Origin: an uncultured Ignavibacteria bacterium
Lineage (GTDB): Bacteria > Zixibacteria > MSB-5A5 > UM-FILTER-46-8
DNA: 64,000 nt
Reading direction: 5' to 3'
Assembly (NCBI GenBank): GCA_964563085.1
Contig: CAZLVS010000002.1
Location: 62-64,061, forward strand
The translations under genes were made by a program, and so were the position numbers. Positions 3,861 through 51,290 of the stretch are shown in pieces. Within the stretch, counting starts at the first letter, position 1. Each line of letters starts with the position of its first letter. A model generated the notes under the pieces. The model had not been told where the DNA came from, did not search any database, and was given only the letters and a program-made list of their open reading frames with translations.

Positions 3861-4016
3861 CCCGGATAACTCATAAAACCGATTAATTCGCAGCCGAAGG
3901 TTTGTCCTTCGGGAGTTCAATAGAAGTAGATCATTTACAGATAGGAATTGAGTATCTCCAAGAAACGCCGGAAGCGCAAGACTTCCGCTACCGATAACGA
4001 TACTTGTGAATAATAT
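3861..4016 (-). repeat. ~155-bp intergenic repeat element (MITE-like), copy 1, inverted orientation
   Basis: Reverse complement matches the consensus seen at 12504, 22543, 26161, 31804, 38429 and 51133. Ends ctatattattcacaa / ggttttatgagttatccggg. Hairpins cggaagtcttgcgcttccg and ccgaaggacaaaccttcgg. Confidence 0.8.
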
Positions 4017-4035
4017 AGATTAGTAAGGAGAGATA

Positions 4036-4539
4036 ATGTTTTCAACTATTGAGGATTTTAAAGCTGCTTGGGCTGAGGAAAAAGAGGGGACATTGAGATT
4101 ATTATCAGCGCTGACTGATGAGTCTCTAAATCAGGCTATTGCGGAGGGGCATAGGAACCTGGGGAGAGTTGCCTGGCATATCGCGGTGACTATTCCTGAA
4201 ATGTCCAAACGCATCGGACTGGATGTAAAGGGACCGGATGAGAAGGCTCCGGTTCCCGAGACGGCGGCAGAGATAAAAGCCGCATATAAGGAGGCTTCCG
4301 ATTCGCTCATGGAACAAGTGTTAAGCAATTGGAGTAATGATACATTGCAGGTCGAGGATGATATGTATGGCGAGACCTGGAAGCGTGGAAAAAGCCTGGC
4401 GGTGATTGTCAGCCATGAAGTGCATCATCGGGGGCAAATGACAGTACTGATGAGACAGTCCGGTTTGATAGTCCCGGGAGTTTATGGTCCCGCATTGGAA
4501 GAATGGGAGCAGTATGGAGCTCCACCGCCGCAATTATAA
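4036..4539 (+). CDS. DinB/YfiT-like metal-dependent hydrolase family protein
   Basis: Four-helix DinB_2-like pattern with conserved His residues (…HIAVT…, …SHEVHHRGQMTVLMRQ…). RBS aaggagag upstream of ATG. Confidence 0.55.
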   Translation: MFSTIEDFKAAWAEEKEGTLRLLSALTDESLNQAIAEGHRNLGRVAWHIAVTIPEMSKRIGLDVKGPDEKAPVPETAAEIKAAYKEASDSLMEQVLSNWSNDTLQVEDDMYGETWKRGKSLAVIVSHEVHHRGQMTVLMRQSGLIVPGVYGPALEEWEQYGAPPPQL

Positions 4540-4578
4540 TCGGCTAATTGATTGTATAGTAGCCAGAAAGGATCAATA

Positions 4579-5043
4579 ATGTTACTTTATCTTGTCAGAC
4601 ATGCTCAATCGGTTCAGAAGGATGTGAATCCTAAACGCCCGTTATCGGAGGAGGGTAAAAAGACAGCAAAAGCAGTGGCGTCCTACATTTCTGAGAAAAA
4701 ACTGATAAATGTTAGCAGAATTCTTCATAGCGGCAAGGAGCGCGCCAAGCAAACGGCTGAGATATTTGCCGAGGAAATGAACTGCGGCGACAAAGTAGCC
4801 GAAGAAGACAGTCTGGAACCGAACGCCGATCCCGGGATATGGGTAAGCAGACTTATTGATATCAGTGATAATCTGATGATAACCGGGCATCTTCCGCATC
4901 TGAACAAATTCGCAACAATGCTTCTCAGCGGCAATCCGCAAAACGATATTTTTAGTTTTGGCAATGCATCCCTGGTCTGTCTTAAACGGAATGAATCGAG
5001 GGAATGGCATGTGAACTGGATGATTACTTCGGATATTGTCTGA
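4579..5043 (+). CDS. histidine phosphatase superfamily protein (SixA-like phosphohistidine phosphatase)
   Basis: N-terminal LYLVRHAQS (RHG/RHA motif of branch-1 histidine phosphatases) and downstream GHLPHL. Length ~155 aa as in SixA. RBS aaagga before ATG at 4579; the tool ORF starts further upstream at 4552. Confidence 0.6.
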   Translation: MLLYLVRHAQSVQKDVNPKRPLSEEGKKTAKAVASYISEKKLINVSRILHSGKERAKQTAEIFAEEMNCGDKVAEEDSLEPNADPGIWVSRLIDISDNLMITGHLPHLNKFATMLLSGNPQNDIFSFGNASLVCLKRNESREWHVNWMITSDIV

Positions 5044-5257
5044 ATATTCTTCATAAGCTGAGTATTCCGGCTATCAACCAATCTCTACTCGGCTGCCGGC
5101 GGTTTGACGGCAGGTCGAAATCCGAAACGAAGCTCCTCGATGAAATCGCGATGGTTTCGACGATTCATCCAAGTTAAAGGTATCTTGATGTTTACCCTCG
5201 AATCCATATATTGTATTCCGAATACTCGGCTTGGCGAGTACTAAGATGGAGAATTGA

Positions 5258-9028: not shown

Positions 9029-9107
9029 CGGAGATATTGGTAATTGCAAGTCCGAGGCTTGCCGAGGGCGCGTCAATCTCCTTTTCTCATGCGATGCTCT
9101 AACCCGA

Positions 9108-9192
9108 AATTTTCATAAATACCGTTATCGGTAGCGGAAGCGGAAGCGCAAAGCTTCTTCTACCGGCGCCGAAATTTATGAATAATCGGGGC
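9108..9192. repeat. truncated palindromic derivative of the ~155-bp repeat (left-end/hairpin-1 half joined to inverted left end)
   Basis: ttcataaataccgttatcggtagcggaagc … gcttc…ctaccggcgccgaaatttatgaataatc. Both halves match the left TIR + first hairpin of the full element, in opposite orientations. Confidence 0.6.
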
Positions 9193-9356
9193 TATATGTA
9201 GATGGGCGTAATATCCAAGTCAATAATTAACTGCCAATATCAGAACTCAGGCTTGCAACTTTCGGATTGTCATCCGATAATTTCTATTGACTGATTGGTG
9301 AAAAATCGTAGATTGTTATTCAATTCACAAGAGAAGAAGTTTGCCAGCGAGGAAAT

Positions 9357-12400: not shown

Positions 12401-12503
12401 TCTTTTAATAATTTTATCCCGCCGCTTCGTCCGCATCGAACTCTACACACCGTCCTTCCGCAATCCTATTCAGGAAATTGAAATAACTGAGGATCATATT
12501 TGT

Positions 12504-12663
12504 CCTGTATTGTTCATAAATTTCTTTATTGGTAGCGGAAGACTTGCGCTTCCGGCGTTTCTCTGAGAAACTCTATTCCAATCCGTAAATGACCTGCTTC
12601 TATTAAGCTCCCGAAGGACAAGCCTTCGGCTACGGATTAATGGGTTTTATGAATTATCCGGGT
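12504..12663 (+). repeat. ~155-bp intergenic repeat element, copy 3
   Basis: cctgtattgttcataaa…ggtagcggaagacttgcgcttccggcg…ctcccgaaggacaagccttcggctacggattaatgggttttatgaattatccggg. Confidence 0.8.
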
Positions 12664-12837
12664 TAACTTGCAGCCGAAGGCGGAGAGATAAGCATGTTTC
12701 TTTTAGCCCTCATCCCCTTGCCCCTTCTCCCAATAAATGGGAGAAGGGGAATTGAGCGGATATCTTGTATTCACTATAATCATTTTATTCTTTCCTTATC
12801 CCTCTCCCGTTCAGCGGGAGAGGGCGCCTTGACGAAT

Positions 12838-13812: not shown

Positions 13813-13968
13813 GGCGGATTAAGGTTTGATAAGTAATGCAGGCCGGGTTCCAAAGTTGTGCTCAGCGCAGCCCAGAAATGAGACAACCTTTACCGAAGGA
13901 TACTTCGTTCGTTGGATACCGAGGGACAAACCTTCGGCTGCCATTGTGGATTGGATGAGTCTTAAGAT

Positions 13969-17032: not shown

Positions 17033-17061
17033 CTCCGAAGCGTCAAATTTACAGTACGTAG

Positions 17062-17084
17062 CCGAGGGCTTGCCCCTCGGTTTT
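17062..17084 (+). terminator. rho-independent terminator hairpin (ccgagggcttgcccctcgg + TTTT)
   Basis: 8-bp GC-rich stem followed by T-run immediately after the DsrK-like stop. Confidence 0.6.
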
Positions 17085-17096
17085 ATTATTATACGT

Positions 17097-17178: not shown

Positions 17179-17430
17179 TTACTTCAGCAGTATCATTCTT
17201 TTAACGAATTTCGAGTCTCCGGCGGTCATTCTATAGAAGTAAATTCCGCTGGCGAAGTTGGAAGCGTCCCAAGTTAATTTATGATACCCAGCTTCCTGTT
17301 GCGAACTAACCAATGTAGCTACCTTTCTACCTAAGATGTTGAACACATCCAGCCTAACATAGCTCTCCTCAGGTAACTGATATGAAATGGACGTTACGGC
17401 ATTAAAGGGATTAGGATAGTTATAATTCAT
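17179..17430 (-). pseudogene. orphan T9SS C-terminal sorting domain (gene remnant, 83 aa)
   Basis: ORF consists solely of MNYNYPNPFNAVTSISYQLPEESYVRLDVFNILGRKVATLV…SGIYFYRMTAGDSKFVKRMILLK. There is an in-frame stop 10 codons upstream of the Met and no cargo domain. Confidence 0.5.
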
Positions 17431-17696: not shown

Positions 17697-18455
17697 ATGG
17701 GCGAAATAATAGCGATAACTAACCAGAAAGGCGGCGTGGGGAAGACCACCACAGCCATTAATCTCTCCGCATGTCTTGCTGTGGCGGAGAAGAAAACATT
17801 GCTCATCGATATAGATCCGCAGGCTAACACTACCAGCGGGGTCGGATTTCCGCGGGAGGATATCGATTATTGTATCTACGAATGCCTGATTGACGGAGTT
17901 GGAACAGATGAGGTTATCAAGCCAACATCAACACCGAATCTCTCCTTGATACCCTCGCACATCAAGCTGGTTGGCGCTGAGATAGAGCTGGTCAATATGC
18001 CGCGACGGGAGAAGGTGCTTCATTCACGGCTCTCCGAGGTCAAGGACGATTACGATTATATCATAATCGACTGCCCCCCTTCGCTTGGATTGCTTACTTT
18101 AAATACGCTTACCGCCGCCGATTCAGCATTGATACCTATCCAATGTGAATATTACGCATTAGAGGGATTGGGACAGCTTATTAATACTATAAATCTGGTT
18201 AAAAAGAATTTAAATCCGAAACTTAAGATAAAAGGCGTGGTATTAACCATGTACGATTCCCGTCTTCGCCTTGCCAAGCAGGTTGCCGAAGAGGCTCGGG
18301 AATTCTTCGGAAGCAAAGTATATGATTCGGTTATAAATCGAAACGTGCGGCTGTCGGAAGCGCCCAGTTACGGACAGCCGATAATTATGTATGATATTCT
18401 TTCGACGGGTGCTGAGAACTACAGTCAACTGGCTAAGGAGATAATGGAGAAATGA
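17697..18455 (+). CDS. parA: chromosome partitioning ATPase ParA/Soj
   Basis: Deviant Walker A KGGVGKTTTAINL. Length and order immediately upstream of ParB. Confidence 0.9.
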   Translation: MGEIIAITNQKGGVGKTTTAINLSACLAVAEKKTLLIDIDPQANTTSGVGFPREDIDYCIYECLIDGVGTDEVIKPTSTPNLSLIPSHIKLVGAEIELVNMPRREKVLHSRLSEVKDDYDYIIIDCPPSLGLLTLNTLTAADSALIPIQCEYYALEGLGQLINTINLVKKNLNPKLKIKGVVLTMYDSRLRLAKQVAEEAREFFGSKVYDSVINRNVRLSEAPSYGQPIIMYDILSTGAENYSQLAKEIMEK

Positions 18456-20074: not shown

Positions 20075-20089
20075 GATTTACGCAAAATA

Positions 20090-20488: not shown

Positions 20489-20600
20489 TGTTGACAACTT
20501 ATTAAAAAGTGTGGAAATGTGCCTAATATGTTGAATATTATTGGATTATGCCCTAATATAGTCCTAACAGAATGCCAGTTATCCACAATTGGAGAAAAAT

Positions 20601-22432: not shown

Positions 22433-22542
22433 ATCGGTCAAGATATGGTCTGAATCGTATCAGATTCTTTGCACTAAAAGCAAGGGGGCGAAGCGGAGCG
22501 ATTCCTCCCGAGCTTCGTGCGCGGTTTTCGTCCCCGCAATAG

Positions 22543-22700
22543 CCTGTATTATTCATAAACTTCGTTATCAGCAGCGGAAGCCTTGCGCTTCCGGCGTCTT
22601 TTTGAAACCCTCAATTCCAGTCTGTATATGATCTACTTCAATTAAGCTCCCGAAGGACAAGCCTTCGGCTACGAATAAATTCTTTTCACGAATTATCCGA
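22543..22700 (+). repeat. ~155-bp intergenic repeat element, copy 5
   Basis: cctgtattattcataaac…agcggaagccttgcgcttccggcgtctttttgaaaccctcaattccagtctgtatatgatctacttc…cccgaaggacaagccttcggctacg…. Confidence 0.8.
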
Positions 22701-22890
22701 AATAGGCGGGCAGTTGGGGGGATCGCCTGACACGGCTTCCGCAGCAATGCAAATTTTCTTTTTGGGAGGGGGGCTTCACGCCCATGCGTGAAGCCGAGGT
22801 GCGTTATTTTATTGTGGGGTGAGCCTTCCCGCCTGTAGCGGGCTAATCATTCCACCTGCACGGATTGGACAGAATGAGTGGAAGTTCGGC

Positions 22891-26040: not shown

Positions 26041-26160
26041 GCAGCGTAGCCAAGGCTGTACCCCTGTCAGCCTCATGCTGGTTGACTATGCCATCCTCGC
26101 AACAAGTGCGCTGTCGGGTCGCCGCGCCGGAACTGCCTAAAATGTTGAAATTGCGCCTAA

Positions 26161-26315
26161 CCTGCATTATTCATAAATCCTATCACCGGTAGCGGAAGCC
26201 TTGCGCTTCCGGCGTCTTTTTGAAACCCTCAATTCCAGTCTGTATATGATCTACTTCTATTAAACTCTCGAAGGACAAGCCATCGGCTGCGGATGATGAG
26301 ATTTATGGATAATCC
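26161..26315 (+). repeat. ~155-bp intergenic repeat element, copy 6 (abuts IS fragment)
   Basis: cctgcattattcataaatcctatcaccggtagcggaagccttgcgcttccggcg…tctcgaaggacaagccatcggctgcgg…tttatggataatcc. Confidence 0.8.
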
Positions 26316-26318
26316 AGG

Positions 26319-28958
26319 CTAATCCGGTTCTTCCGCGGACTTCACTCTCGCCGCCAAAATCGTAAAATCATCTCCCAGGGGAACCTCTCCAATAAACTCC
26401 CTGACCTTTAATTCGAGGTCTTTCAGGATTTCAGTCAACGGGCGGTCGAAATTCGCTTTGAGGTGCTCCTTGATTTTCTCCTCGCCATACATCTCACCAT
26501 CGGAATTCTCCGCTTCACTCACGCCATCGGTATAAAGGAATACGAGATCGCCTCCATGCAGTTCAATTACGTCCTGCTCATAGGGCATACCGGGCATGGC
26601 GCCCAGAAGCAGACCGCCTTTGGACAACTCCTTAATAGCGCCGTCCTTCCGGACCAGGAAAGGATGATTATGTCCTGCGTTCACATAGGAGAAAGTGGAA
26701 TTGCCGGTATCATAAACCCCCGAGAAAAATGTAATAAACTGGTCGGGGGGTGAATTTCTGTGTATCAGGTTGTTGATCCGTGCGATGATATCCGATAGCT
26801 GGATACCGGTCTGAGCATCTCCTTTCTCAGCTTCTCTTCCGGTGAGGGTGGTGATTTTACCGCTGACTTCGGACATCCGCGCGCCGATACTGACTGCCGT
26901 CCTGAATGACGCCTGAAGGTTGGACATCAAGATCGCCGCCCCGGCGCCCTTGCCGGAAACATCGCCCACCGCCAATACGGTGCGCTTTTCGTCAAGGTTC
27001 ATCACATCGTAGTAATCACCGGCGACCTCCAGACAGAACTTGCTGGATGCGGCAACCTCCAGCCCCGGCGTGTCGGGAATAGTCTGAGGCAGCAGCCCTT
27101 CCTGCACCTGTCTCGCCATACCCAATTCATGTTCCAGTCTGCGTTTGTCTAAGTTCTCTTCCATGAGGGTGATATTCTCCCCGGCGATAGCGATCTGATT
27201 GGCAAGCGAATGCAGGATATCCAGATCAATCGGTTCAAAATCCTTTTTCTCTGTTTTGTAGCCGATCGCCAGAAATCCCACCAGGCGAGACCGCGTAAAC
27301 ATCGGTAGTATCAAGGCGATTTGGTTATCAATCAGCCATTTCTTTTCTTCTTCGTTGAAGGATATTTTATCGCTGGCAATCGCTTCGTCAACCATTATAT
27401 GCGGACGTTTGGAATTCTCTAAGTCTTTTATGAACTCGCTGTCCGATCTAAAAGGCGTTTCCTCTCCATTCCACCGGGTCAGCGATTCCGTATTTTCGGA
27501 TCTGAGTATAGGGTAAACCAAGTCCACTCTCAGCACTTCTTTCAGTCTTTGCTCTAACTCAGTCCAGAAAGCCTTCTTCTCGGAAACGATTAACGATTGG
27601 GAGAGGAAGTTCCGCAGAAGTGTGCGCAGACGGCTTCGTTCCGGATAAAACCGTTTCTCCAGCGCTATTTGCAATTTACGCTGGGTGGGAGCGAATCCGA
27701 TAGCCAGGATTAGTGCCATAAAAAGCACCGGAGCATTTTGTTGCACTCCCAGCGATTTAAGCACGATTTCGCTGGCGCCGTAGATTATCAGGTAAAAAAC
27801 TAAAAGTAACACAGCGGTCACTGCAGCGTAACGCGTTCCGCGCCGTATTTTGCCTTCAACTTCCAGAAGCCGGTATTTACCGAAGGCGTAAGCAAAAGAT
27901 AATGGGGACAATAGCAATCCGAGAAAGACGACAATAAGGATAGCCACTACCTGGTATTCCTTCAGGGAGCCTAACCAAGAACCGGCCAACATAACCAGGA
28001 CGAGCAGAGCCCACCACAGGAATAATCCGATTCCGGAACCCCAGAGCACTAAACGTGTCTGCCTTTTCTCAAGAAGGTTTGGCGCCCTGGAATGATAGCT
28101 GCCAAGAATGAAAAATCCCACCCATATCTGTGCAGCCGCAATTGAAACTACGATATAGTTGGTAACCAGAGTGGTTACTATTAATACCATTATCATACCG
28201 ATAATCGGCGCTCCGTAGCATAATAAGTATGCTACAATGGGATGCTGAGCGATTAGCTTCCTGGGCCGTGGGAAAAGTAACTGCAGGTTCAGCCAGAATC
28301 CCCCCAAAAGAATCGCGAACATACCCAGGATATTGAATATGGTAGCCTCGAACGGGATCTCGAATACCGCGAAATATTGTAATCCTGACTGTATCCACAT
28401 CATTAATAAAATCGCCATTGAAAACGAGAAAAGCGACAGAGCCCTGACGGCTCCGGAATCAGGCTGTTTTACGTATGCCCAGAATCCCACCGCCCAAAAA
28501 AGCACCACAATCAAGAAACGTAATATACCCAGAGCTGAAGTCTGTAATATCTCGCTGTCTTCAACGGGCTGGAGCCTCATCTTTGTGATGAGAGTATCCT
28601 GATTACTCACCATTAGAAGCGTTACCGTGCTGTCCGATTGGTATCGTCCTCTAACTTCTTTAACCCAATTATTCCTGGTAGCCGGCAGATCATTAAATTG
28701 AATGATTGTATCATTCACTGTAGGAAATGGCTTAGAGAGAAAGTCGGTCGTGTCAATTTCACTGAATACAGCTAAACTGTCGATAATTACTTCGTCATTA
28801 CTTGAAACAATATGGAGCTTTCCCTTTTTATTCCCCGATTTCCGCCAATTCTCGAGACCGGATCCCTCCCTGATAAAAAACAGAATAGCCGCTATCAGGA
28901 TAAATCCGCCTATTACCGGCACAAACCATTTAGCTAATTTGGGAAAAAAAGACTTCAT
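26319..28958 (-). CDS. PP2C-family serine phosphatase (SpoIIE/RsbU-like) with N-terminal 7TM receptor (7TMR-DISM-like) and GAF-like regions
   Basis: C-terminal PP2C signatures GDYYDVMNL…VLAVGDVSGKGAGAAILMSNL…FLYTDGVSEAEN. Periplasmic N-domain followed by 7 TM helices. Confidence 0.7.
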   Translation of the reverse strand: MKSFFPKLAKWFVPVIGGFILIAAILFFIREGSGLENWRKSGNKKGKLHIVSSNDEVIIDSLAVFSEIDTTDFLSKPFPTVNDTIIQFNDLPATRNNWVKEVRGRYQSDSTVTLLMVSNQDTLITKMRLQPVEDSEILQTSALGILRFLIVVLFWAVGFWAYVKQPDSGAVRALSLFSFSMAILLMMWIQSGLQYFAVFEIPFEATIFNILGMFAILLGGFWLNLQLLFPRPRKLIAQHPIVAYLLCYGAPIIGMIMVLIVTTLVTNYIVVSIAAAQIWVGFFILGSYHSRAPNLLEKRQTRLVLWGSGIGLFLWWALLVLVMLAGSWLGSLKEYQVVAILIVVFLGLLLSPLSFAYAFGKYRLLEVEGKIRRGTRYAAVTAVLLLVFYLIIYGASEIVLKSLGVQQNAPVLFMALILAIGFAPTQRKLQIALEKRFYPERSRLRTLLRNFLSQSLIVSEKKAFWTELEQRLKEVLRVDLVYPILRSENTESLTRWNGEETPFRSDSEFIKDLENSKRPHIMVDEAIASDKISFNEEEKKWLIDNQIALILPMFTRSRLVGFLAIGYKTEKKDFEPIDLDILHSLANQIAIAGENITLMEENLDKRRLEHELGMARQVQEGLLPQTIPDTPGLEVAASSKFCLEVAGDYYDVMNLDEKRTVLAVGDVSGKGAGAAILMSNLQASFRTAVSIGARMSEVSGKITTLTGREAEKGDAQTGIQLSDIIARINNLIHRNSPPDQFITFFSGVYDTGNSTFSYVNAGHNHPFLVRKDGAIKELSKGGLLLGAMPGMPYEQDVIELHGGDLVFLYTDGVSEAENSDGEMYGEEKIKEHLKANFDRPLTEILKDLELKVREFIGEVPLGDDFTILAARVKSAEEPD

Positions 28959-31594: not shown

Positions 31595-31803
31595 ACCCCT
31601 CTCCGGAGGGGGATGAAATGTAGCGGCGAGGGGGTATGTTTAACCCGCCATTGATTGATGACAAAGTAATCTTGCATATCAGAGATTCCGGACTTCAGTT
31701 CGGGGAGTTTCACGGTTCTTAATAACCGAGGACTTTGGTCCTCATAAGGTCATGTAGAGGAGTAGTATACAAGAAGGGTTAAAATCCGTCATTATTAAAA
31801 TAG

Positions 31804-31962
31804 CCTGTATTATTCACAAATTGAGTTATCGGCAGCGGAAGCCTTGCGCTTCCGGCGTCTTTTTGAAACCCTCAATTCCAGTCTGTATATGATCTACTTC
31901 TATTAAACTCCCGAAGGACAAACCTTCGGCTGCGGATTAATGCTGTTTGTGAAGTATCCGGG
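31804..31962 (+). repeat. ~155-bp intergenic repeat element, copy 7
   Basis: cctgtattattcacaaattgagttatcggcagcggaagccttgcgcttccggcgtctttttgaaaccctcaattccagtctgtatatgatctacttctattaaactcccgaaggacaaaccttcggctgcggattaatg…. Confidence 0.8.
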
Positions 31963-32079
31963 AGAGTAATACTCCCCATGTTAAAACGTGGGGACTCGCA
32001 GCACCTTTCAGCAGACTTGTTGGAATGGTCGGGGCATTAGCGGAGTACGATTAGTTTCATGCCTACTGATGGAAATCCT

Positions 32080-33533: not shown

Positions 33534-33543
33534 ATTATCCTCA

Positions 33544-34236: not shown

Positions 34237-34247
34237 CTCCTTTGGTT

Positions 34248-35333: not shown

Positions 35334-35556
35334 TTAATATTAACAAATGACAGCTAATCAACTAATTTATAGTGATTTTAGCGGAAAAGCCAGTAGTTTC
35401 CTGTTTGCTAATATATATACAAATAAAACCTTATTAAATCAATAGGATATTAAGATTAAGTGAGGTATTAAGTAATGTTTGCATTAGGTTTTGCGGCGTC
35501 TCCTATCGGCACTCGCAAAGGCTTTTGCAGCATAATTTTATAGTAGCCCAATATAT

Positions 35557-35588
35557 CTAACGCGGCATTTTGGATAAATGCCGCGCAT
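35557..35588 (-). terminator. hairpin gcggcattt…aaatgccgc downstream of minus-strand T9SS cargo gene
   Basis: 9-bp stem with 5-nt loop directly after the stop of the 35605..37032 gene. Weak U-tract. Confidence 0.4.
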
Positions 35589-35604
35589 GTCTAACAACTA
35601 ACAA

Positions 35605-37032: not shown

Positions 37033-37251
37033 TATGACTCCTCCTGTTTCAGATTGATTGGGATTTCCATTTTGCTCTCTAACCTAAATTTCAATTCATT
37101 CGAAGATAATTCAATTCAGATTCTTTGAAGTATTTCTGAAATTCCTTTTAATAGTATCATAAACAGCGAGGAATTCAAGGGAATTATGTGAGGCGGAAAT
37201 TATTTCCGGTTTTACGCAGCGCTTTTCGTTCAGGATTGGATGGTATCAATC

Positions 37252-38394
<1,143 letters not shown>

Positions 38395-38428
38395 TCATTA
38401 TCCGTAAATCTAAGCAGTTATGGTTTAG

Positions 38429-38586
38429 CCTGGATTATTCGTAAATTTGGAAATCGGAAGCGGAAGCCTTGTGCTTCCGGGGTTTCTCTGTAATCTTCTA
38501 TTCCAATCTGTAAATGCTCTATTTTTTATAAATCCCCGAAGGAATAGCCTTCGGTTACCGAATATCAGACTTTATGAATTATATAG
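38429..38586 (+). repeat. ~155-bp intergenic repeat element, copy 8 (more diverged)
   Basis: cctggattattcgtaaat…cggaagccttgtgcttccgg…ccccgaaggaatagccttcggttaccg…tttatgaattatat. Confidence 0.7.
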
Positions 38587-38699
38587 GATAAATATATCAT
38601 GTCTGTTAAATCCAGGCAATGACTCAATATCGGAAAATGGGAATGTATACCGATTATGACAAAAACAAACCGGCGGACGAGGATGTCTGACCGCACCCA

Positions 38700-38860
38700 A
38701 GAGTGCCGTCCCCCGAAGTCATTGCGAGGAGCATAGCGACGAAGCAATCCACATACTCCGTAGCCGAAGCCTTGCCCTTCGGGATCACAGAACTATGTGC
38801 TGTCGGGTCACCGCACGCGTCATTGCGAGCAAAGCGAAGGCGACGTAGGACGGGTTCCGG
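38700..38860. repeat. pair of gtcattgcgag(c/g)a…agcga direct repeats flanking an inverted fragment of the ~155-bp element
   Basis: gtcattgcgaggagcatagcgacgaagcaatcc (38713-38745) and gtcattgcgagcaaagcgaaggcgacg (38820-38846). Between them ccgtagccgaagccttgcccttcggg is the reverse complement of the hairpin-2 segment of the repeat. Confidence 0.5.
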
Positions 38861-39438
38861 AATTCGGCGATAGCCGAATGGAGAAACCCGACACACTTGC
38901 TAAACGCCAAGCGTCCCATAGAGGATAGAGCTCGAAGGCATACTTCGGCCTTTTTGCATAACATTTAGTTCCCCGATCGGGAATATCCCCATTCCGAAAA
39001 TAATCACGTATGCTGAAAATAATCCGCAAGATATCCGCACTAAAACAAACTTAAGTTATGGATCAATGTAACAAAGCATTTCGAAACCGTTAATCCATAG
39101 CCTTAATAGGAAGAATGCTATGAAAGAAATTACTCGCTATAAGCCTATTACTCATTGGACTGAAACTATGTTAGGGTGGAATTTCCGCGTGGCGGTTTCA
39201 TTGCGGTATAATGCGAGGTTTGTCCATAAGCGCCAAAATTGTAGAAACACAAAAACATGAAAAGTCTGCAAGATTTATCGCTTTTAGCGAATTGTAATAG
39301 TTTGGAGTGAACCCAAATCTGTTTGGAGGTGAGTTAAGGAAATGAATAATTACAGGGATTCCCCCGGATATTGTCCTAATCGTGTAAAATGGGGGCGAAG
39401 GAAATTTGAGGTACTAATTTAATAATAAGGAGTTTAAG

Positions 39439-40461
39439 ATGTTAAGGAAATTAATTACATTATTATTAGCAATAATCATGGTGATTTTTGTTATTGGAAT
39501 GGCTCAAGCCACGGTTTATTCCTGCCGTGCTTTTCTTGAATATGAACTTGACCACTCCGGTATTCACGTAGAGTTCGAAGGTAACTGGGGTCATTACATC
39601 TGCCGCGGACTGTATGAGCATACATACACAGTCGAAAACGGTTATTGGATCTTAGAGTTTCCGTCTTGTTGGTACGACGTGTGCCTTACACCACCGGACA
39701 CAGCAAAGTGGGAAACCCTTTGCTGGGAAAATTCATATTTCCCGCCAGGGACCTATGACTGTCTTGAAAACGGCAAATGGGATACATTATGGGCTAAATT
39801 ACCGAGATTCGATATTGTTATGCATCCATATGATCCGCCGGTTGTAGTTCCACAATGCGGAAGCTTCAGGTATACTGGCATACTCAAAAATAATTATGGT
39901 ATGCCCGGTACTGTAGATGTCTGGATCGAAATCGGCGGACTATATGAAGCTAGGAAATTTTTGAATATTCCCATTGAAGGAAATCAAGAGATAATAGTCG
40001 AAAATATACGTCAAAGAGTCCCATGCTGGGTTCCACCCGATGTATATAGTTATTGCGTGTATGTCGGTGATTATCCTGATGATGTTATCGATTCTTACTG
40101 CTTCAATTTTACAGTCACGGAAGCGTTTGCCGGAGGCGGCGGAGTAAATGAATGGCAAGTTGATGCTTGGTTTGATTACGAAGCCGTATCAAAATCTTCA
40201 ACAACAAGCGTTTTGAGCAATACTCCCAATCCCTTCAACGCCACGACATCAATTATGTTTAATCTCACCGAGGAAACTGAGGTTAAGCTGGAGGTCTATG
40301 ACCTGCTGGGACGGAGGGTAGCAACGTTGGCGGATGGCGCTTACAACGCCGGCGAACATTCGGTCACCTGGGACGCTTCGGACTATTCCAGCGGTGTTTA
40401 TTTCTACCGGCTGGAAGCGGGCGATGAGGTGTTTACTAAACGTATGACTTTGCTTAAGTAG
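39439..40461 (+). CDS. T9SS-secreted protein: Cys-containing N-domain + shared ~105-aa module + T9SS CTD
   Basis: Signal peptide MLRKLITLLLAIIMVIFVIGMAQA. Module DIVMHPYDPPVVVPQCGSFRYTGILKNN…VDVWIEIGGLYE…YSYCVYVGDYPDDV…FNFTV. CTD …NTPNPFNATTSIMFNLTEETEVKLEVYDLLGRRVATL…SGVYFYRLEAGDEVFTKRMTLLK. Confidence 0.7.
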   Translation: MLRKLITLLLAIIMVIFVIGMAQATVYSCRAFLEYELDHSGIHVEFEGNWGHYICRGLYEHTYTVENGYWILEFPSCWYDVCLTPPDTAKWETLCWENSYFPPGTYDCLENGKWDTLWAKLPRFDIVMHPYDPPVVVPQCGSFRYTGILKNNYGMPGTVDVWIEIGGLYEARKFLNIPIEGNQEIIVENIRQRVPCWVPPDVYSYCVYVGDYPDDVIDSYCFNFTVTEAFAGGGGVNEWQVDAWFDYEAVSKSSTTSVLSNTPNPFNATTSIMFNLTEETEVKLEVYDLLGRRVATLADGAYNAGEHSVTWDASDYSSGVYFYRLEAGDEVFTKRMTLLK

Positions 40462-40540
40462 GGGAAAATATTATCCGGGTGGAACATTTCCGCCCGGGTA
40501 ATTGTAAGATGAATAGGAGGTATAACTAAAGGAGGATGCT

Positions 40541-41206
40541 ATGTATGTACGTTCGGTTTTTCTAACAGTGTTCCTGTGTGTGGGAATAATTTCATTAGCG
40601 GGGGCAAATCCGAGACCGGATACAACAGGAGGGTTTATTTTGGGTTACGCCTTTTTGGAGGATGGAGGGGAGTCCCCGGTTAGAGTGGATTTTGTATACC
40701 AATCAAATTCCTTACCTCATCAAGATTCTACAATCTTTACGATCACCGATTACTCCGGGTATTTCGAATTCTATTTCACCTGGACTGAAGCGGCCACTGA
40801 TTTCCTGTTGAAGTATTCACGTCGCGGATATCTGAGTGAAACAAGGTATTCCGATTATGTACCGGTGTGGTATAACGGGGAGTACTGGCGAATGGATTTT
40901 TCAACGGTAACTCTGGAATGTGATGATCGAATGGTGATAGGTGATGATCGAATACGGATAGGAAATGATCCCAATCCATTCAATCCCGCTACGTCTATCG
41001 AATTCGTTTTACCGGCGCAAGCTAATGTAAAGCTCGAGATATATGACATCATGGGGCGGAAAGTGGCTGCACTGGCGGACGGCGCTTACGATGCCGGCAG
41101 GCATACAGTGAGTTGGGATGCTTCGGATCAATCCAGCGGGGTTTATTTCTACCGGCTGGAAGCGGGTGATAAGGTCGTTACGAAACGGATGACGCTGTTG
41201 AAGTAA
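40541..41206 (+). CDS. small T9SS-secreted protein (carboxypeptidase-regulatory-like core?) with 5' and 3' ends near-identical to the next gene
   Basis: RBS aaaggagga. Signal MYVRSVFLTVFLCVGIISLAGANP. CTD …DPNPFNPATSIEFVLPAQANVKLEIYDIMGRKVAALADGAYDAGRHTVSWDASDQSSGVYFYRLEAGDKVVTKRMTLLK. Confidence 0.65.
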   Translation: MYVRSVFLTVFLCVGIISLAGANPRPDTTGGFILGYAFLEDGGESPVRVDFVYQSNSLPHQDSTIFTITDYSGYFEFYFTWTEAATDFLLKYSRRGYLSETRYSDYVPVWYNGEYWRMDFSTVTLECDDRMVIGDDRIRIGNDPNPFNPATSIEFVLPAQANVKLEIYDIMGRKVAALADGAYDAGRHTVSWDASDQSSGVYFYRLEAGDKVVTKRMTLLK

Positions 41207-41217
41207 AGGAGTAACGG

Positions 41218-41249
41218 GTTGTTCGGATGGAATGCTCCATCCGAACAAC
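41218..41249 (+). terminator. 13-bp perfect hairpin (gttgttcggatgg aatgct ccatccgaacaac) between the two tandem cargo genes
   Basis: Seen directly. No T-tract. Confidence 0.4.
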
Positions 41250-41288
41250 TGCTTAATCAGATAAGAGGTACTACAAAAGGAGGATGCT

Positions 41289-42242
41289 ATGTATGTACGT
41301 TCGGTTTTTCTAACAGTGTTCCTGTGTGTAGGAATAGTTTCATTAGCGGGGGCAAATCCGCTTCCCGGTAATCCAGTGGAGTACAATGTGGATATTTTAT
41401 ATCCAACGGACGACGCTCGAATTAAAATGAGTAAGCCGGATACGAATTACGGCTCGAATTCAAATCTTTGGATAAGGAATAGATATGGGTCGCCATACCA
41501 TCCGGACCACTGGGAAAGCGACGCACTGCTGAAATTCGACTTATCCAATCTTCCCCCCGATGCAAACATAAACTCGGCGACTTTGAATATGTACTATTAT
41601 TACTGGAAAGATAACAATCCCACCGGGAGGGAGTTAACGGCGTATAAGATCATCGAAGACTGGGATGAAATGACGGTTACCTTCAATAACCAGCCATCTA
41701 CTGCGCCGGAACTGTCAGCGAGTTCGACCGTGCCTGCCGATTACGGTTGGATGAGCTGGGATGTTTCCGAAGACGTCCAGGATTATGTCAATGGACAGAC
41801 TGAGAATTATGGGTGGAAAATCATGGATGAGGAGTACTGGGGGCAGTACAATATCCCCAGGATATATTTCTACACGAAAGAGTGGGAGACTGCCGAGTTC
41901 ATTCCTTTTCTCGAAATCAGCTACTCAGGGGAGGAGCCAACGTCTATATCCATTGAGATGGCTCCCCATGATAATCCCGCTGCAGTCCAGCTTCACGCTA
42001 ATTATCCCAATCCGTTCAATCCCGCTACGTCTATCGAATTCGTTTTACCGGCGCAAGCTAATGTAAAGCTCGAGATATATGACATCATGGGGCGGAAAGT
42101 GGCTGCACTGGCGGACGGCGCTTACGATGCCGGCAGGCATACAGTGAGTTGGGATGCTTCGGATCAATCCAGCGGGGTTTATTTCTACCGGCTGGAAGCG
42201 GGTGATAAGGTCGTTACGAAACGGATGACGCTGTTGAAGTAA
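41289..42242 (+). CDS. T9SS-secreted DNRLRE-domain protein
   Basis: Signal MYVRSVFLTVFLCVGIVSLAGANP. Core …DDARIKMSKPDTNYGSNSNLWIRN…ALLKFDLSNLPPDANINSATLNMYYYY…TVTFNNQPS… matches the DNRLRE-domain pattern (sDxxyGsxxxLxV.…LLkFDLSsLP.ga.ItsAtLxLy…wxEstVTwNNqP). CTD identical to the previous gene over ~235 nt. Confidence 0.65.
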   Translation: MYVRSVFLTVFLCVGIVSLAGANPLPGNPVEYNVDILYPTDDARIKMSKPDTNYGSNSNLWIRNRYGSPYHPDHWESDALLKFDLSNLPPDANINSATLNMYYYYWKDNNPTGRELTAYKIIEDWDEMTVTFNNQPSTAPELSASSTVPADYGWMSWDVSEDVQDYVNGQTENYGWKIMDEEYWGQYNIPRIYFYTKEWETAEFIPFLEISYSGEEPTSISIEMAPHDNPAAVQLHANYPNPFNPATSIEFVLPAQANVKLEIYDIMGRKVAALADGAYDAGRHTVSWDASDQSSGVYFYRLEAGDKVVTKRMTLLK

Positions 42243-42388
42243 GTCTGTGGGTTTATTTTGCCGTCGGGCGTTCTCACCCGATCCCGATTTTATCTGGGCG
42301 CCAGGTCGAATGACCTGGCGCCGCTTTTCGGTGCTGTCGGGCTCCTGCAAATGTGGCGTCGGGCCGCCGCACCCGACAGATTCATATT

Positions 42389-44662
42389 TTATTTAAGCAG
42401 CGTCATCCGCTTGGTGATTACATTGTCGCCAGCGCTTAGCTTATAGAAATAAACTCCGCTGGAGAAGCTGGCAGCATCCCAGGTTACAGTATGCTGTCCG
42501 GCAACCTTATTGCCGTTCACCAGTGTAGCGACTCTCTGTCCCATCAAGTTGTACACTTCCAAACTTACTTCCCCGGCTTCCGGCAAGCTAAAGCTGATAT
42601 TGGTGGAAGCATTGAACGGATTAGGATAGTTGGTCTGCAATCCATACTCGGTAGGAATAATTTCGCTTCCGAAGAACTCGCCTTCGATCGACCATTCGGC
42701 GGCGCCGTCAGCGATCCTGGCTCCTGCCACCGTGAACGGGAAAGAGGCGCTGTCGCAGACCTCATCGGGGCGATCGCCGCAATATGCCATATAGGTGTAT
42801 GTACCCAAGGGCGCAAATCCCGGCACATTCTGCCACGTATGCGCAGTCATCGACTCGCCCGGGTCTAACGGGATATTATTGAACGCAAACTGCTGGAAGA
42901 AATCACCCAGGTAGATCACTCCGCCCCAGACGTCCGTGGTAATCGGGTCATCGGTAGGATTACCGATGTAGCCGGTTAAACCGAAGCGGCCGCCCGGTTC
43001 AACTATAACGGGGTCATCGTCGGGAGTCATATCAACATCGCAGCAGGGTCCGCATTCCAGACCGCAATAGCCGTACCAGGTTCCGCCGGGACCGTCGGTT
43101 CCGGTAAAGAGTTTTTCACAGGTTACCGACAGAGTCCATCCCCAGCTGCTCGACCAACCGTTAGGAATGTTGAAAGTCTCAACATAAGTGCCGTCAAACT
43201 CATAGACATGAACGTCACCGCCGTCTTCCCATGTGAACAGGTTACAGCCGTTGGTGGCGATGCAGAATTCGAATCCCCAACCGTTGGTGGTAAATCCATA
43301 CATGGTATCCACCAGCTCGCAGGTTTCGAAATCAATTACCCAGACTGTGCCTCCGCTATGCTCGTACATTAAATTAGCAGCGGGATCGTAACATACTTTA
43401 GCCTGATAATCATGGAATACTCCGCTGCAAACAAGGTTGTATGTGCCGGCTTCCGGATCTATCTGATAGAGGTCAGTTCCATAAATCTTCACGTAGAATT
43501 GACCGTCATTCGGGTTGAAGAAGATAGCCCTCATGTCCAGCGTCAAGCTGACCTGACCCAGACTATTGCCTTCCAGATCGAATTTCTCCACAGCGCCCAG
43601 ACTGCTGATGCCGCCATTGACGGAGTACATATACTCATCGTTACACGCTATGGACATCAAGGTGACGTCGAGGCTGTTTGTAAAGGTCATGCATTCTTCC
43701 GGAGTATAATCGAGTATATCGCTTACCTGCGATTCATTAGCCGGTGAGAGCGCATAACTCGGGGATGCCGCAGTATTCACCATAGCGGCTTCCCATCCAC
43801 CTTCAATCGCCCAGTTCTCGGCGCCGTTTCTAAAGGAACCCGCGGTTACCGTGAACTCAAACATAGCGGAATCGCAAGCCTCGGGTTTCTCCCCGGAAAA
43901 GGCGATATAGGTATAGGTACCGGAAGGGGCAAATACCGGTACGCTCTGATTAAGATGAGCGGATAATTCCTCTCCGGGATCAAGCGGTATGTTGCCGAAA
44001 TTCCAGAGCTGGAAAAAATCACCCAGGTAGATAACTCCCACCCATACATCTGTAACGATCGGATCGGGATTGGGATTGGCGATATAACCGGTCAATCCGA
44101 AAGTACCGCCGGGCGGAACCATCACGGGATCATCATCGGGAACCATATCCACATCGCTGCAGAGTGTTTCCTCATATTCGAAGTCATCGATGGTATAGAA
44201 ATTTCCGGAATTATGCATCAACACATAGTCTATGCCATCGGCATTAATTTCCAGAAAGTCGTTCTGTCCGTAGTTATCTGGTCCCGATATCGATGCTAAC
44301 AGATTGTCATCGGAATCATATCCTTCCAGGTAAAACATAGAACCGGTTCCCGCGGTATACCAAACGCCTACATGGTTGGTCGGATCTTCAAAGTCGACCC
44401 TGATAGTGTTATCCGAATCGGTAAAAAGCACCTGGTTTCCCGAATGCGGCGGGTAGCCGGTATTGTTATATCCATAGACAACAGATTCAAGGATTGTCGC
44501 ATCGGGACCGAAAAACAGTCCTTCATAAAAGTCGCCCAGGTTTTGATCGCCGCCGAAATACCAATAGGTTTCGGGTACGTCCTCAAGATCGAGAACGGTC
44601 AACGCGTTTACTGTTCCAAAGGCAAACAGAACAATACAGATAGTTGTTAAAACACTTTTCAT
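42389..44662 (-). CDS. large T9SS-secreted protein with two copies of the shared ~105-aa module, a central beta-propeller-like region and T9SS CTD
   Basis: Signal MKSVLTTICIVLFAFGTVNA. Module copies VDMVPDDDPVMVPPGGTFGLTGYIANP…DVWVGVIYLGDF…YTYIAFSGEKPE…FEFTV and VDMTPDDDPVIVEPGGRFGLTGYIGNP…DVWGGVIYLGDF…YTYMAYCGDRPD…FPFTV. CTD …NYPNPFNASTNISFSLPEAGEVSLEVYNLMGQRVATL…SGVYFYKLSAGDNVITKRMTLLK. Confidence 0.7.
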   Translation of the reverse strand: MKSVLTTICIVLFAFGTVNALTVLDLEDVPETYWYFGGDQNLGDFYEGLFFGPDATILESVVYGYNNTGYPPHSGNQVLFTDSDNTIRVDFEDPTNHVGVWYTAGTGSMFYLEGYDSDDNLLASISGPDNYGQNDFLEINADGIDYVLMHNSGNFYTIDDFEYEETLCSDVDMVPDDDPVMVPPGGTFGLTGYIANPNPDPIVTDVWVGVIYLGDFFQLWNFGNIPLDPGEELSAHLNQSVPVFAPSGTYTYIAFSGEKPEACDSAMFEFTVTAGSFRNGAENWAIEGGWEAAMVNTAASPSYALSPANESQVSDILDYTPEECMTFTNSLDVTLMSIACNDEYMYSVNGGISSLGAVEKFDLEGNSLGQVSLTLDMRAIFFNPNDGQFYVKIYGTDLYQIDPEAGTYNLVCSGVFHDYQAKVCYDPAANLMYEHSGGTVWVIDFETCELVDTMYGFTTNGWGFEFCIATNGCNLFTWEDGGDVHVYEFDGTYVETFNIPNGWSSSWGWTLSVTCEKLFTGTDGPGGTWYGYCGLECGPCCDVDMTPDDDPVIVEPGGRFGLTGYIGNPTDDPITTDVWGGVIYLGDFFQQFAFNNIPLDPGESMTAHTWQNVPGFAPLGTYTYMAYCGDRPDEVCDSASFPFTVAGARIADGAAEWSIEGEFFGSEIIPTEYGLQTNYPNPFNASTNISFSLPEAGEVSLEVYNLMGQRVATLVNGNKVAGQHTVTWDAASFSSGVYFYKLSAGDNVITKRMTLLK

Positions 44663-49286: not shown

Positions 49287-49306
49287 GTTCGTTTAGCGGC
49301 TTTTTC

Positions 49307-49338
49307 ATCGGGTCAGGATTACCTGACCCGATTTTTTA
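49307..49338 (+). terminator. rho-independent terminator (atcgggtcagg atta cctgacccgat + TTTTTT)
   Basis: 11-bp stem, 4-nt loop, T6 run immediately after the stop of the 48441..49286 gene. Confidence 0.7.
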
Positions 49339-49476
49339 TGGAGTATGCGTACCCCCCCCCGGCACACCCATCTTAAGCTTTCTTCGCCAGCAAATTATAC
49401 CAGCGCCCGAGCGACTTGACAATCATAGCTTTGAATACTATATTAATGAAGTAAATCACTGCCGGAGGGGATAAAA

Positions 49477-51123
49477 ATGATATTTAATTACAGATTGCTT
49501 GGCTATCATCGCATCACTCTTGTGGTTTCGCTTACAGTTATTTTGACCATATTTATTTCATCCGATTCTACATCAAGGGGATTTTCACACGAAAGTGATT
49601 TCTGTAATAACTGGGAAGTATACAAAAGAGATCAGATAAAGAAATATGGGAGATTGTACGATCCATGCTATAATGGAGACTGTGATATCCCCAGAAATCG
49701 TAATGAATCAATACCGGAACCCGATGACCCATATTTGTATATTCGCCTGTATTTCAATATCTTCTGTGAAGATGACGGCAGCAACTGCGGCACAACCGAG
49801 TCAATACTCGACCTGCAGATAAGGGAACTCAATAGCGCATTCTCTCCCTCAAGAATCCAGTTTGTTTATGATCATACCTTCATAAACTCAACGGAGTATA
49901 GATATAATCCAGATGTGGAACAGATGAAAAGTATTTATGCCCGGGCTCCCGAATATCAGCTTAATGTATACATTACTGAGGGCGCCGGTTCTTTTGGAAC
50001 ATATCCCTGGGACGACGTAAGATTACCGCTTTCCGATCAGGGCGGTATAGTTATACGTCACGATCGTATTTATCCGGCTCCATATTACGATAATACACTG
50101 GCACATGAAATCGGTCACTGTCTTGGATTATGGCATACATTCCACGGTGTATTTGAAGTACCGGAGTGCGGAGACTGTTATGAAATGGCAAATGGGGAAG
50201 ATGCCGATGTTACCGGAGATCTCTGTTCGGATACGCCGCCGACTCCACGAAACTACGATTGCCGAGATCCAGGCGGTGTCGATCCCTGCTGCGATACTCC
50301 ATGGGGGGAAACGTCTCCTCAAAATTATATGAGCTACAGCGCTCTGGGAGGAACTCCCTGCTGGACCGAGTTTACGCCGCAGCAATGGGGACGGATGCAT
50401 TGCTGGATTGATGCCGTTCTTTCCGGCTGGATTCAATCCGCCGGCTCACAATTGTCTATTGCAATGATCCCGGATGAAAATCCGATTGAAGTTATGCCGG
50501 GCGAGCAGTTCGGGCTTACAGGAATTTTGACAAACAACGGAGACAGCAGCGAAACAGCGGATGTCTGGATAATGCTGATTGCGCCGGAAATAGGGGAACA
50601 TGGTCCCCTACATACTTTCCATGACATCTCCCTACAACCGGGGCAAACAATCAATGCGCACCTTAATCAGCAGGTGCCGATAAACGCCCCATTAGGCATA
50701 TATGATTACATTGCAAACGCAGGAGATTTTCCCGATACAATTTACGATGCTGATACATTTCAATTCACAGTATTTCAGAATTCCGAACAAGGAGATTTCA
50801 GCGATCATAATCGGAGGTGGGTTCTGAGGGGAGGTTTCGACCGGAGTGTATCAAACCTAAAGAGCTTACAAAATGTCAGAAACTATCCTAATCCATTTAA
50901 TTCTTTTACCGAGATATCATTCCAGCTTATTGATGATTCCTATATCGAAATAACTGTTTTTGATATCCTGGGAAGACGAGTTGCAGCGCTTGCCAAAGGT
51001 AACTATAACGCTGGTGCGCACAATATCCGTTGGGATGCGTCAAACCAGCCGTCAGGTATATATTTCTATCGACTGAGTACACCCAATGAGGCTGAAACCA
51101 ATAGAATCACATTAATTAGATAA
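49477..51123 (+). CDS. T9SS-secreted M43-family (pappalysin/ulilysin-like) zinc metalloprotease + shared ~105-aa module + T9SS CTD
   Basis: Extended zinc motif HEIGHCLGLWHTFHG (HExxHxxGxxH, as in ulilysin HEIGHWLGLYHTF). Cys-rich catalytic domain. Module LSIAMIPDENPIEVMPGEQFGLTGILTNN…DVWIMLIAPEIGEHGP…YDYIANAGDFPDTI…FQFTV. CTD …NYPNPFNSFTEISFQLIDDSYIEITVFDILGRRVAAL…SGIYFYRLSTPNEAETNRITLIR. Confidence 0.7.
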   Translation: MIFNYRLLGYHRITLVVSLTVILTIFISSDSTSRGFSHESDFCNNWEVYKRDQIKKYGRLYDPCYNGDCDIPRNRNESIPEPDDPYLYIRLYFNIFCEDDGSNCGTTESILDLQIRELNSAFSPSRIQFVYDHTFINSTEYRYNPDVEQMKSIYARAPEYQLNVYITEGAGSFGTYPWDDVRLPLSDQGGIVIRHDRIYPAPYYDNTLAHEIGHCLGLWHTFHGVFEVPECGDCYEMANGEDADVTGDLCSDTPPTPRNYDCRDPGGVDPCCDTPWGETSPQNYMSYSALGGTPCWTEFTPQQWGRMHCWIDAVLSGWIQSAGSQLSIAMIPDENPIEVMPGEQFGLTGILTNNGDSSETADVWIMLIAPEIGEHGPLHTFHDISLQPGQTINAHLNQQVPINAPLGIYDYIANAGDFPDTIYDADTFQFTVFQNSEQGDFSDHNRRWVLRGGFDRSVSNLKSLQNVRNYPNPFNSFTEISFQLIDDSYIEITVFDILGRRVAALAKGNYNAGAHNIRWDASNQPSGIYFYRLSTPNEAETNRITLIR

Positions 51124-51132
51124 AAACCTTAG

Positions 51133-51290
51133 TCTGTATTCTTCACAAATCCTATCACCGGCAGCGGGAGATTTGCGCTTCCGGCGTTTCTTTGTAATCC
51201 TCAATTCCAATCCGTAGATGACCTGCTTCTATTGAACTCCCGAAAGACAAGCCTTTGATGCGGGTTAATGGGTTTTATGAATTATCCGGG
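51133..51290 (+). repeat. ~155-bp intergenic repeat element, copy 9
   Basis: tctgtattcttcacaaatcctatcaccggcagcgggagatttgcgcttccggcg…ctcccgaaagacaagcctttgatgcgggttaatgggttttatgaattatccggg. Confidence 0.75.

Follow-up and report, generated by a model that had tools for sequence, protein, structure and literature searches.

A miniature inverted-repeat element with IS1380-type ends dispersed in a Zixibacteria genome

The stretch of DNA analyzed here, a 64-kb window from a contig of a Zixibacteria metagenome-assembled genome (MAG), contains multiple copies of a 159-bp repeat. This repeat is very probably a noncoding miniature inverted-repeat transposable element (MITE) that has the ends of IS1380-family insertion sequences (IS) and has spread in this genome. 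A MITE was one of two readings offered by the original prediction, the other being a structured RNA. It is borne out by the terminal inverted repeats (TIRs), which are of the IS1380 type, by 4-bp target-site duplications, by orthologous sites that are empty in one genome and filled in another, by copies outside the window, and by full-length IS that have the same ends and encode IS1380-family transposases. From these features, we infer that an IS1380 transposase fitting these ends operates in trans in this Zixibacteria genome, or did so in the past. The element represents a new family within a well-known class, found in an uncultivated phylum and tied to IS1380, and not a new kind of RNA. Unless stated otherwise, statements on copies and on transposases refer to the window.

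The window was compared with a sister MAG, Zixibacteria Bin_336 (GCA_014730175.1), which is ~86 to 88% identical to it in DNA sequence at orthologous loci. The sister loci (L010, L011, and L012) were reached via the 90% protein clusters of the window's flanking genes; the sister-MAG sequence examined amounts to ~70 kb of loci, three of them orthologous to parts of the window. Fifteen full copies from both genomes were aligned, and this alignment is the basis for the conservation values, hairpin pairing, and duplication counts reported below. Logan contigs, which are short-read assemblies of the same strain and 100% identical to the window, were also used.

Copies and ends of the element

Repeat detection in the window retrieved a family of ~162 nt, in which six copies are direct and one is inverted. 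An nhmmer profile identified seven full copies, with E values of 1e-43 to 5e-52, and the same seven were recovered by blastn with the consensus. A 25-nt core pattern matched seven times in the window, against 0.00 matches expected from shuffled sequences. In total, the window holds seven full copies of ~159 bp, a palindromic derivative of 89 bp, and two to three fragments (Table 1). The original prediction agrees with these results on the repeat family and, to within 3 nt, on the positions of the full copies. The palindromic derivative, first placed at 9108-9192, has its boundaries at 9103-9191, and the fragments noted near 13918-13942 and 38762-38790 are real but weak (nhmmer E values of ~1e-4). 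The derivative has a left half composed of the terminal repeat, spacer, and GTAG-hairpin, fused to an inverted left-type half, and the solitary unit at 38754-38788 resembles one half-module of the MITE. Every copy in the window is intergenic, as had been proposed, and four of the seven full copies lie between convergent genes. Copies occur in both orientations relative to the neighboring genes; an orientation bias, with six of the seven copies on the plus strand, was considered and set aside because the copies are too few for it to have meaning.

The family extends beyond the window, where the original prediction had suggested that further copies be counted. One copy lies ~9.5 kb upstream of the window (locus L133, a Logan contig), and this genome holds at least eight copies; the sister MAG loci hold eight full and four partial copies. 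When the core of hairpin 1 was searched for in GTDB, with each species represented by one genome, the element was found solely in Bin_336; a match in Clostridia, which sits inside a coding region, was rejected as a chance occurrence. The same pattern gave no matches in the JGI metagenomes and none in IMG/VR. Within these collections, the interior of the MITE thus occurs in two MAGs only. Exact-protein look-up of the flanking genes, aimed at strain variants, yielded the same strain alone, from three runs belonging to one study and on contigs broken at the repeats.

Copies are 79 to 91% identical to the consensus (blastn) and 66 to 88% identical to each other among the 15 full copies, below the 85 to 95% between copies that had been estimated at first. 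The pairwise range shows that the family is old. Subfamilies are present within each genome and, together with this range, fit successive amplification from master copies, as expected of such elements. No open reading frame (ORF) is conserved across the copies, and the MITE carries no transposase gene. Its TIRs are 17 nt long (CCYGKATWATTCATAAA), with a majority fraction of 0.89 to 0.91, and the end consensus is CC(T/C)G(T/G)AT(T/A)ATTCATAAA; the inverted ends had been correctly recognized in the original prediction but assigned a length of 12 nt. IS1380-family elements are described in ISfinder as having ends that begin with CC and target duplications of 4 to 5 bp, and the MITE has both traits, starting with CC and duplicating 4 bp.

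Target-site duplications and insertion polymorphism

The 4-bp flanks on the left and right of the element are identical in 7 of the 15 full copies (CTAA/CTAA twice, ATAG/ATAG once, TTAG/TTAG three times, and TTAA/TTAA once) and differ by one mismatch in another six. The duplication consensus is YTAR. Its variable positions, 1 and 4, agree as direct and not as inverted repeats, showing that the flanks are not part of the terminal repeat. A 2-bp TA duplication (IS630/mariner-like) and a 3-bp TNA duplication were both rejected, since the empty site contains exactly one tetranucleotide and positions 1 and 4 covary in the manner of direct repeats. The target-site duplications that the original prediction had named as a feature to look for are therefore present as 4-bp direct repeats, and an empty site confirms them.

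This empty site was identified by comparison with the sister MAG, in which L010 (5321-5486) reads tcgatt-CTAA-(158 bp)-CTAA-attaccgg, whereas the window (21300-21316) reads tcgatt-ATAA-attaccgg. Positions 21306-21309 of the window are thus a base-exact empty site with a single tetranucleotide. The reverse situation is found for the window copy at 26161-26318, which follows ...CCGGATTAG; L011 has ...CCGGATTAG and a single TTAG, with unrelated sequence next and no element. The stop codon of the SpoIIE gene, TAG, lies within the duplicated TTAG (26319-26322), so that the element inserted on a stop codon and the duplication left it intact. With YTAR as the target, an insertion can hit a stop codon and yet preserve it. 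The copy at 6351-6508 of L012 (flanks CTAA/CTGA) has no counterpart in the window. Downstream of fpg, both genomes hold a copy, the one in the window lying at 51133-51290 and the one in L012 being rearranged and interrupted by ~165 nt; because it is common to both genomes, this insertion predates the split of the lineages. In all, three sites are occupied in just one of the two genomes, and one site is shared. Presence/absence pairs at orthologous sites identify the element as mobile DNA, and the combination of private and shared sites shows that the family was mobile before the divergence of the two lineages and also afterward.

A separate observation concerns the MoxR gene, ~110 nt downstream of which both genomes hold a copy. 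The truncated copy of the sister MAG (L010 6727-6853) is opposite in orientation to that of the window (22543-22701), which represents either two independent hits or a flip of the interior between its own inverted arms.

Table 1. Copies, derivatives, and fragments of the element in the window, with sites that lack it
Feature	Extent	Element proper	Strand	Support	Flanks (left/right)	Context
Full MITE copy	3857..4023	3861-4019 (159 bp)	-	nhmmer E 3e-48	CTAA/CTAA (4020-4023 and 3857-3860)	Between GT4 glycosyltransferase and DinB genes
Palindromic short derivative, 89 bp	9099..9195	9103-9191	+	Repeat detection, blastn, nhmmer	CTAA/CTAT	Between AI-2E transporter and PEPCK genes
Full MITE copy	12500..12666	12504-12662	+	nhmmer E 4e-51	TTGT/TTAA (decayed duplication)	Between convergent genes
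Fragment, hairpin-2 region (model positions 108-152), without terminal repeat	13915..13957		+	nhmmer E 1.8e-4		
Marginal fragment	17053-17086			nhmmer E 0.011		
Empty target site ATAA	21306..21309		.	Orthologous L010 site filled		
Full MITE copy	22539..22705	22543-22701	+	nhmmer E 9e-49	ATAG/ATAG	107 nt downstream of MoxR ATPase gene, between convergent genes
Full MITE copy	26157..26322	26161-26318	+	nhmmer E 4e-48	CTAA/CTAA	Right duplication (26319-26322) overlaps SpoIIE/GAF phosphatase gene (26319-28958, minus)
Full MITE copy	31800..31966	31804-31962	+	nhmmer E 5e-52	ATAG/AGAG	Between convergent genes (gene for a type IX secretion system [T9SS]-sorted protein, thiD)
Full MITE copy, most diverged	38425..38591	38429-38587	+	nhmmer E 1e-43	TTAG/ATAA	Upstream of tgt
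Solitary GTAG + hairpin unit (CCGTAG CCGAAGC CTTGC CCTTCGG)	38754..38788		-	nhmmer E 1.2e-4		
Full MITE copy	51129..51294	51133-51290	+	nhmmer E 2e-46	TTAG/TTAA	Between convergent M43-peptidase and fpg genes
Region without the L012 6351-6508 copy	55683..55702		.	Flanks too diverged for base-exact empty site		

Full-length IS1380 elements with the same ends

A pattern comprising the end and half of the duplication (TARCCYGKATTATTCATAAA) matches at least 120 metagenome contigs (loci L013 to L132), in which paired inverted matches fall into two size classes, one of 1.6 to 1.8 kb and one of MITE size. In the larger class, ~15 elements among the matches listed have two inverted ends 1.6 to 1.8 kb apart around an ORF of 435 to 481 amino acids. 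Two of these ORFs were scanned and match Pfam PF13701 (E values of 9e-133 and 1e-111) as well as the NCBIfam model NF033539, “IS1380 family transposase” (348 and 312 bits, with a cutoff of 180). The IS4 model scored merely 19.6 bits, and no IS5 model was reported. The transposases are ~30 to 75% identical to each other and the elements range from 35 to 62% G+C, yet the 17-nt end is nearly invariant. An element of 1656 bp in a Latescibacter MAG has perfect 17-nt ends, flanks of ATAG/TTAG, and a product named by NCBI as IS1380 family transposase. A profile built from six of the transposases has at least 7974 relatives; among the 120 relatives listed, Latescibacter is the sole organism name, with no Zixibacteria. 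The closest named relative carried by plasmids is ISMex4, of the IS1380 family, with ~45% identity. Its ends, CCCGTCTTATTCAC, are recognizably related, and its flanks are CTAG/TTAG.

The MITE has the same type of end as IS1380-family elements (e.g., ISMex4, IS1247, and ISEcp1; NF033539 and PF13701) and a short duplication, but it is 159 bp long, is devoid of a transposase gene, has an unrelated interior, and contains a pair of inverted GTAG-hairpins. The full-length elements recovered here measure 1.6 to 1.8 kb, compared with 1672 bp for IS1247. The duplication of the MITE is 4 bp, whereas one of 5 bp is listed for IS1247 (PMC3281130, Table 2).

The MITE-sized class comprises ~40 elements of 73 to 365 bp among the matches listed, which have the same ends and interiors unrelated to that of the window MITE. 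Exact 4-bp duplications flank 20 of 41 such elements, a number reached in none of 5000 shuffles; one of these duplications is GTAA, and the others are TTAG, CTAA, CTAG, and TTAA. In elements with a nonpalindromic left flank, the right flank repeats it directly in 15 cases and inversely in none. The 17-nt end CCCGGATTATTCATAAA is common to the IS1380 transposases and to ~40 unrelated MITE-sized elements with YTAR flanks (e.g., L024 1626-1796, L061, and L128), which points to a broad superfamily of IS1380-associated MITEs in environmental bacteria. No description of an IS1380-derived MITE was found in the literature searched, which does not prove that none exists, and nothing relevant on Zixibacteria transposons was found there.

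The original prediction had attributed mobilization in trans to an IS5/IS1182 partner, on the basis of a transposase remnant next to the copy at 38429. An IS5-family (or IS1182-family) MITE would be in line with a YTAR target and a 4-bp duplication, given that IS5 itself produces a 4-bp YTAR duplication. However, the full-length elements recovered with these ends encode IS1380-family transposases (as judged from the two ORFs scanned with models), and the ends of the MITE begin with CC, whereas those of the IS5 group begin with GG/GA. Moreover, the remnant is absent, as the ORFs at 38654-38896 and 38703-38873 match nothing in Pfam or NCBIfam. Membership of IS5 or IS1182 is thus extremely improbable. 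Mobilization in trans is itself plausible, with a partner other than IS5/IS1182, since the ends are of the IS1380 type. The noncoding stretch at 38700-38850 translates as PEVIARSIATKQS… and …HASLRAKRRRRR (a “VIARSIATKQS”-type motif), without a match in Pfam or NCBIfam, and is probably what had been taken for a transposase remnant.

Several observations weigh against an IS1380-type MITE. Neither the 64-kb window nor the ~70 kb of sister-MAG loci yielded an IS1380 transposase gene, and no transposase of any kind was found among the genes of the window. Comparison of the MITE consensus with the 120 metagenome loci (blastn) gave matches to the ends only, with no detectable similarity in the interior, and the MITE is therefore not a simple internal-deletion derivative of any recovered element. 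One full-length IS1380 element (L073 261-1960), unlike the others, has flanks, CTAA/TTAG, that are inverted and not direct, which may be a consequence of recombination between two copies. The hairpins of the MITE are better conserved than its ends, which a plain “junk copy” or decaying-copy model does not predict. Finally, no pair of copies is more than 88% identical, so that the sequences give no sign of very recent activity and the family may be inactive now.

Paired hairpins of the element

The element as a whole is an imperfect palindrome, with 61 to 66% identity to its own reverse complement (blastn). Each of its two inverted arms is composed, in order, of the terminal repeat, a spacer of 11 to 12 nt, G(T/C)AG, and a 7-bp stem with a 5-nt loop. 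The left hairpin is CGGAAGC-CTTGC-GCTTCCG, and the mirror unit on the right-hand strand is CCGAAGG-CTTGT-CCTTCGG. The majority fraction is 0.93 to 0.97 in the hairpins, including their loops, and 0.72 to 0.82 in the spacers and center, and it is 0.37 in the flanking sequence, the boundaries of the element being sharp in the alignment. In the hairpin stems, 93.8% of cells are paired, which corroborates the earlier statement that the two internal stems are kept across copies.

This pairing raises the question of a structured noncoding RNA or cis-regulatory RNA family, in which the hairpins would be under selection for RNA structure. The consensus folds with -57.9 kcal/mol (z = -5.4), as good a value being reached by none of 200 shuffles, and some substitutions yield G-U wobbles on the top strand of the element. 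In the long fold-back preferred by RNAalifold, 4 of 22 pairs are changed on both sides, with 12 to 13 of 500 shuffles as high, but this signal is within the range that unconstrained related sequences give. In the covariation test of the hairpins that the original prediction had proposed, compensatory change was found in none of the 14 pairs of the local hairpins, and the covariation score was not above that of shuffles. The loops are as conserved as the stems, which indicates a constraint at the level of sequence rather than of pairing. No Rfam family reaches its gathering threshold in the whole window, the copies lie in either orientation to the flanking genes, and terminal repeats, duplications, and insertion polymorphism are traits of mobile DNA and not of RNA genes. 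The structured RNA is hence not supported and is very unlikely.

The GTAG that precedes the hairpins also prompted a comparison with REPIN/BIME, in which inverted, GTAG-preceded REP hairpins are moved on single-stranded DNA by a RAYT (Y1 HUH) transposase. A GTAG prefix and a doublet arrangement are features of REP/REPIN, and here, G(T/C)AG precedes each hairpin on the strand of that hairpin, the two hairpins forming an inverted pair. Solitary GTAG-hairpin units occur at 38754-38788 and 13915-13957, and the whole element is able to form one long hairpin. High copy number and intergenic location are further shared traits. In contrast to REPIN/BIME, which lack outer IS1380-type TIRs and 4-bp duplications, the MITE has 17-nt TIRs of this type outside the hairpins, with boundaries ~30 nt beyond them, and 4-bp duplications confirmed by the empty site. 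Y1/RAYT elements are not known to make such target duplications. Among the window proteins scanned, none was of the PF01797 type. An origin by RAYT was dropped after the duplications and IS1380 ends had been established, and it is highly improbable.

A further reading accepts the MITE as such but supposes that the host has come to retain its copies as portable terminators of transcription or stabilizers of mRNA ends. In the stretch scanned (20001-40000), each of the four copies has a hairpin 1 that, together with its T-run, is classed as terminator-like (CGGAAGCCTTGCGCTTCCG GCGTCTTTTT), and the position of four of the seven copies between convergent genes, the high conservation of the hairpins and loops relative to the spacers and center, and the insertion common to both genomes would all agree with a retained function. 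The orientation of the hairpin, however, suits the upstream gene in only four of the seven copies, two others being antisense and one lying upstream of a gene start, so that use as a terminator is possible but unproven. Hairpin 2, on the other strand, has no T-run, and at most of the sites that can be compared, the two genomes differ, meaning that copies are not generally retained. Constraints on still-transposing master copies would produce uneven conservation equally well. Likewise, a YTAR target that contains stop codons, together with selection against insertions inside genes, suffices to place copies at gene ends. Retention by the host is unlikely.

By analogy, the conservation of the hairpins is likeliest to reflect a constraint on transposition-competent master copies, in which the hairpins would provide subterminal binding sites as in piggyBac. 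A broader proposal, which is doubtful, combines functional paired GTAG-hairpins, either as piggyBac-like subterminal repeats or as host-retained portable terminators, with an undescribed superfamily of IS1380 MITEs with a YTAR target. If the hairpins are piggyBac-like, they would offer a handle on how transposases of the IS1380/piggyBac type assemble on their ends.

Proposed mechanism and relation to known elements

For the MITE with IS1380-type ends, the proposed mechanism is as follows: a DDE transposase of the IS1380 family, supplied in trans, would bind both ends of the MITE and insert it at a YTAR tetranucleotide (TTAG, CTAA, TTAA, or CTAG), and repair of the staggered cut would duplicate the 4 bp. 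The movement itself could proceed by cut-and-paste or by copy-and-paste. The G(T/C)AG-hairpin modules may act as subterminal sites needed for transposition, in analogy with the internal repeats of piggyBac. As a side effect, copies at gene 3′ ends may terminate transcripts, given that hairpin 1 and its T-run resemble an intrinsic terminator.

The ends of piggyBac start with CC and have terminal plus subterminal inverted repeats. As a eukaryotic superfamily, piggyBac is the counterpart of IS1380-like elements (PMC5718144), and trees root it with IS1380 (PMC10813416). It duplicates 4 bp at TTAA, which is among the four YTAR sites of the elements described here. The latter differ from piggyBac in having a target relaxed to YTAR, a bacterial host, a much shorter transposase, and subterminal modules that are self-complementary hairpins. 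The shared end and the 4-bp YTAR duplications fit the relationship between IS1380 and piggyBac, as piggyBac duplicates TTAA.

Among bacterial MITEs, the textbook case of high density is that of the Correia elements (CREE/NEMIS) of Neisseria, which are ~100 to 160 bp long, have TIRs, and occur roughly once per 8 to 10 kb. They are intergenic and often located at gene ends, can form a long hairpin when transcribed, and coexist as short and long variants. The Zixibacteria MITE resembles them in size, TIRs, intergenic and gene-end placement, density, long hairpin, and short variants. The duplication made by Correia elements, however, is TA (2 bp), and their ends are 26 nt long and differ in sequence, whereas the MITE duplicates 4 bp, has 17-nt IS1380-type ends, and belongs to a different phylum. 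Promoter activity, RNase III processing, and terminator effects are documented for Correia elements, and no link between them and IS1380 is known. MITEPye1 of Paracoccus yeei, an IS1182-related MITE (PMC11578231), was recognized by the same logic as the one applied here, being small and intergenic, with IS-like terminal repeats, direct repeats, no transposase, and a predicted RNA stem-loop. It belongs to the IS1182 family and has one to three copies per chromosome, compared with approximately one per 7 to 10 kb for the present MITE.

The result links this MITE family to IS1380; the element class is an ordinary one, and no long-standing question is opened. Its practical consequences concern assembly and annotation. 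All Logan contigs of the same strain that were examined terminate inside MITE copies, and these copies explain the breaks of short-read assemblies every 7 to 13 kb in this Zixibacteria lineage. In annotation, the copies should be masked rather than called as small ORFs or RNAs.

Other features of the window

Two other short sequences adjoin MITE copies. A second small repeat of ~108 nt (…GGGTTAAAATCCGTC…) is found at 31691-31798 of the window, where it adjoins the copy at 31804, and at L011 299-406 and L012 11124-11195. In the sister MAG, it is opposite to the surrounding synteny and nested in the rearranged fpg-side MITE; it may be another mobile miniature element. An identical 18-mer, GGAGAGATAAGCATGTTT, adjoins MITE copies at nonorthologous sites (window 12682-12699 and L010 6705-6722), with 0.04 chance occurrences expected in the window.

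The other repeat families of the window (31308-31550, 40219-44165, and 17179-17430) correspond to C-terminal Por_Secre_tail domains, which are sorting domains for type IX secretion, and the window contains at least eight genes for such secreted proteins. The ORF at 17179-17430 encodes 83 amino acids that consist of the Por_Secre_tail domain alone and is probably a truncated gene. The cumulative GC skew of the window climbs to ~22 kb and drops past ~32 kb, with its maximum near 22 to 24 kb. Near this maximum, gene orientation flips from mostly plus to mostly minus, and parA/parB are located at 17697-19303. The skew and the switch in orientation may mark a replication landmark.

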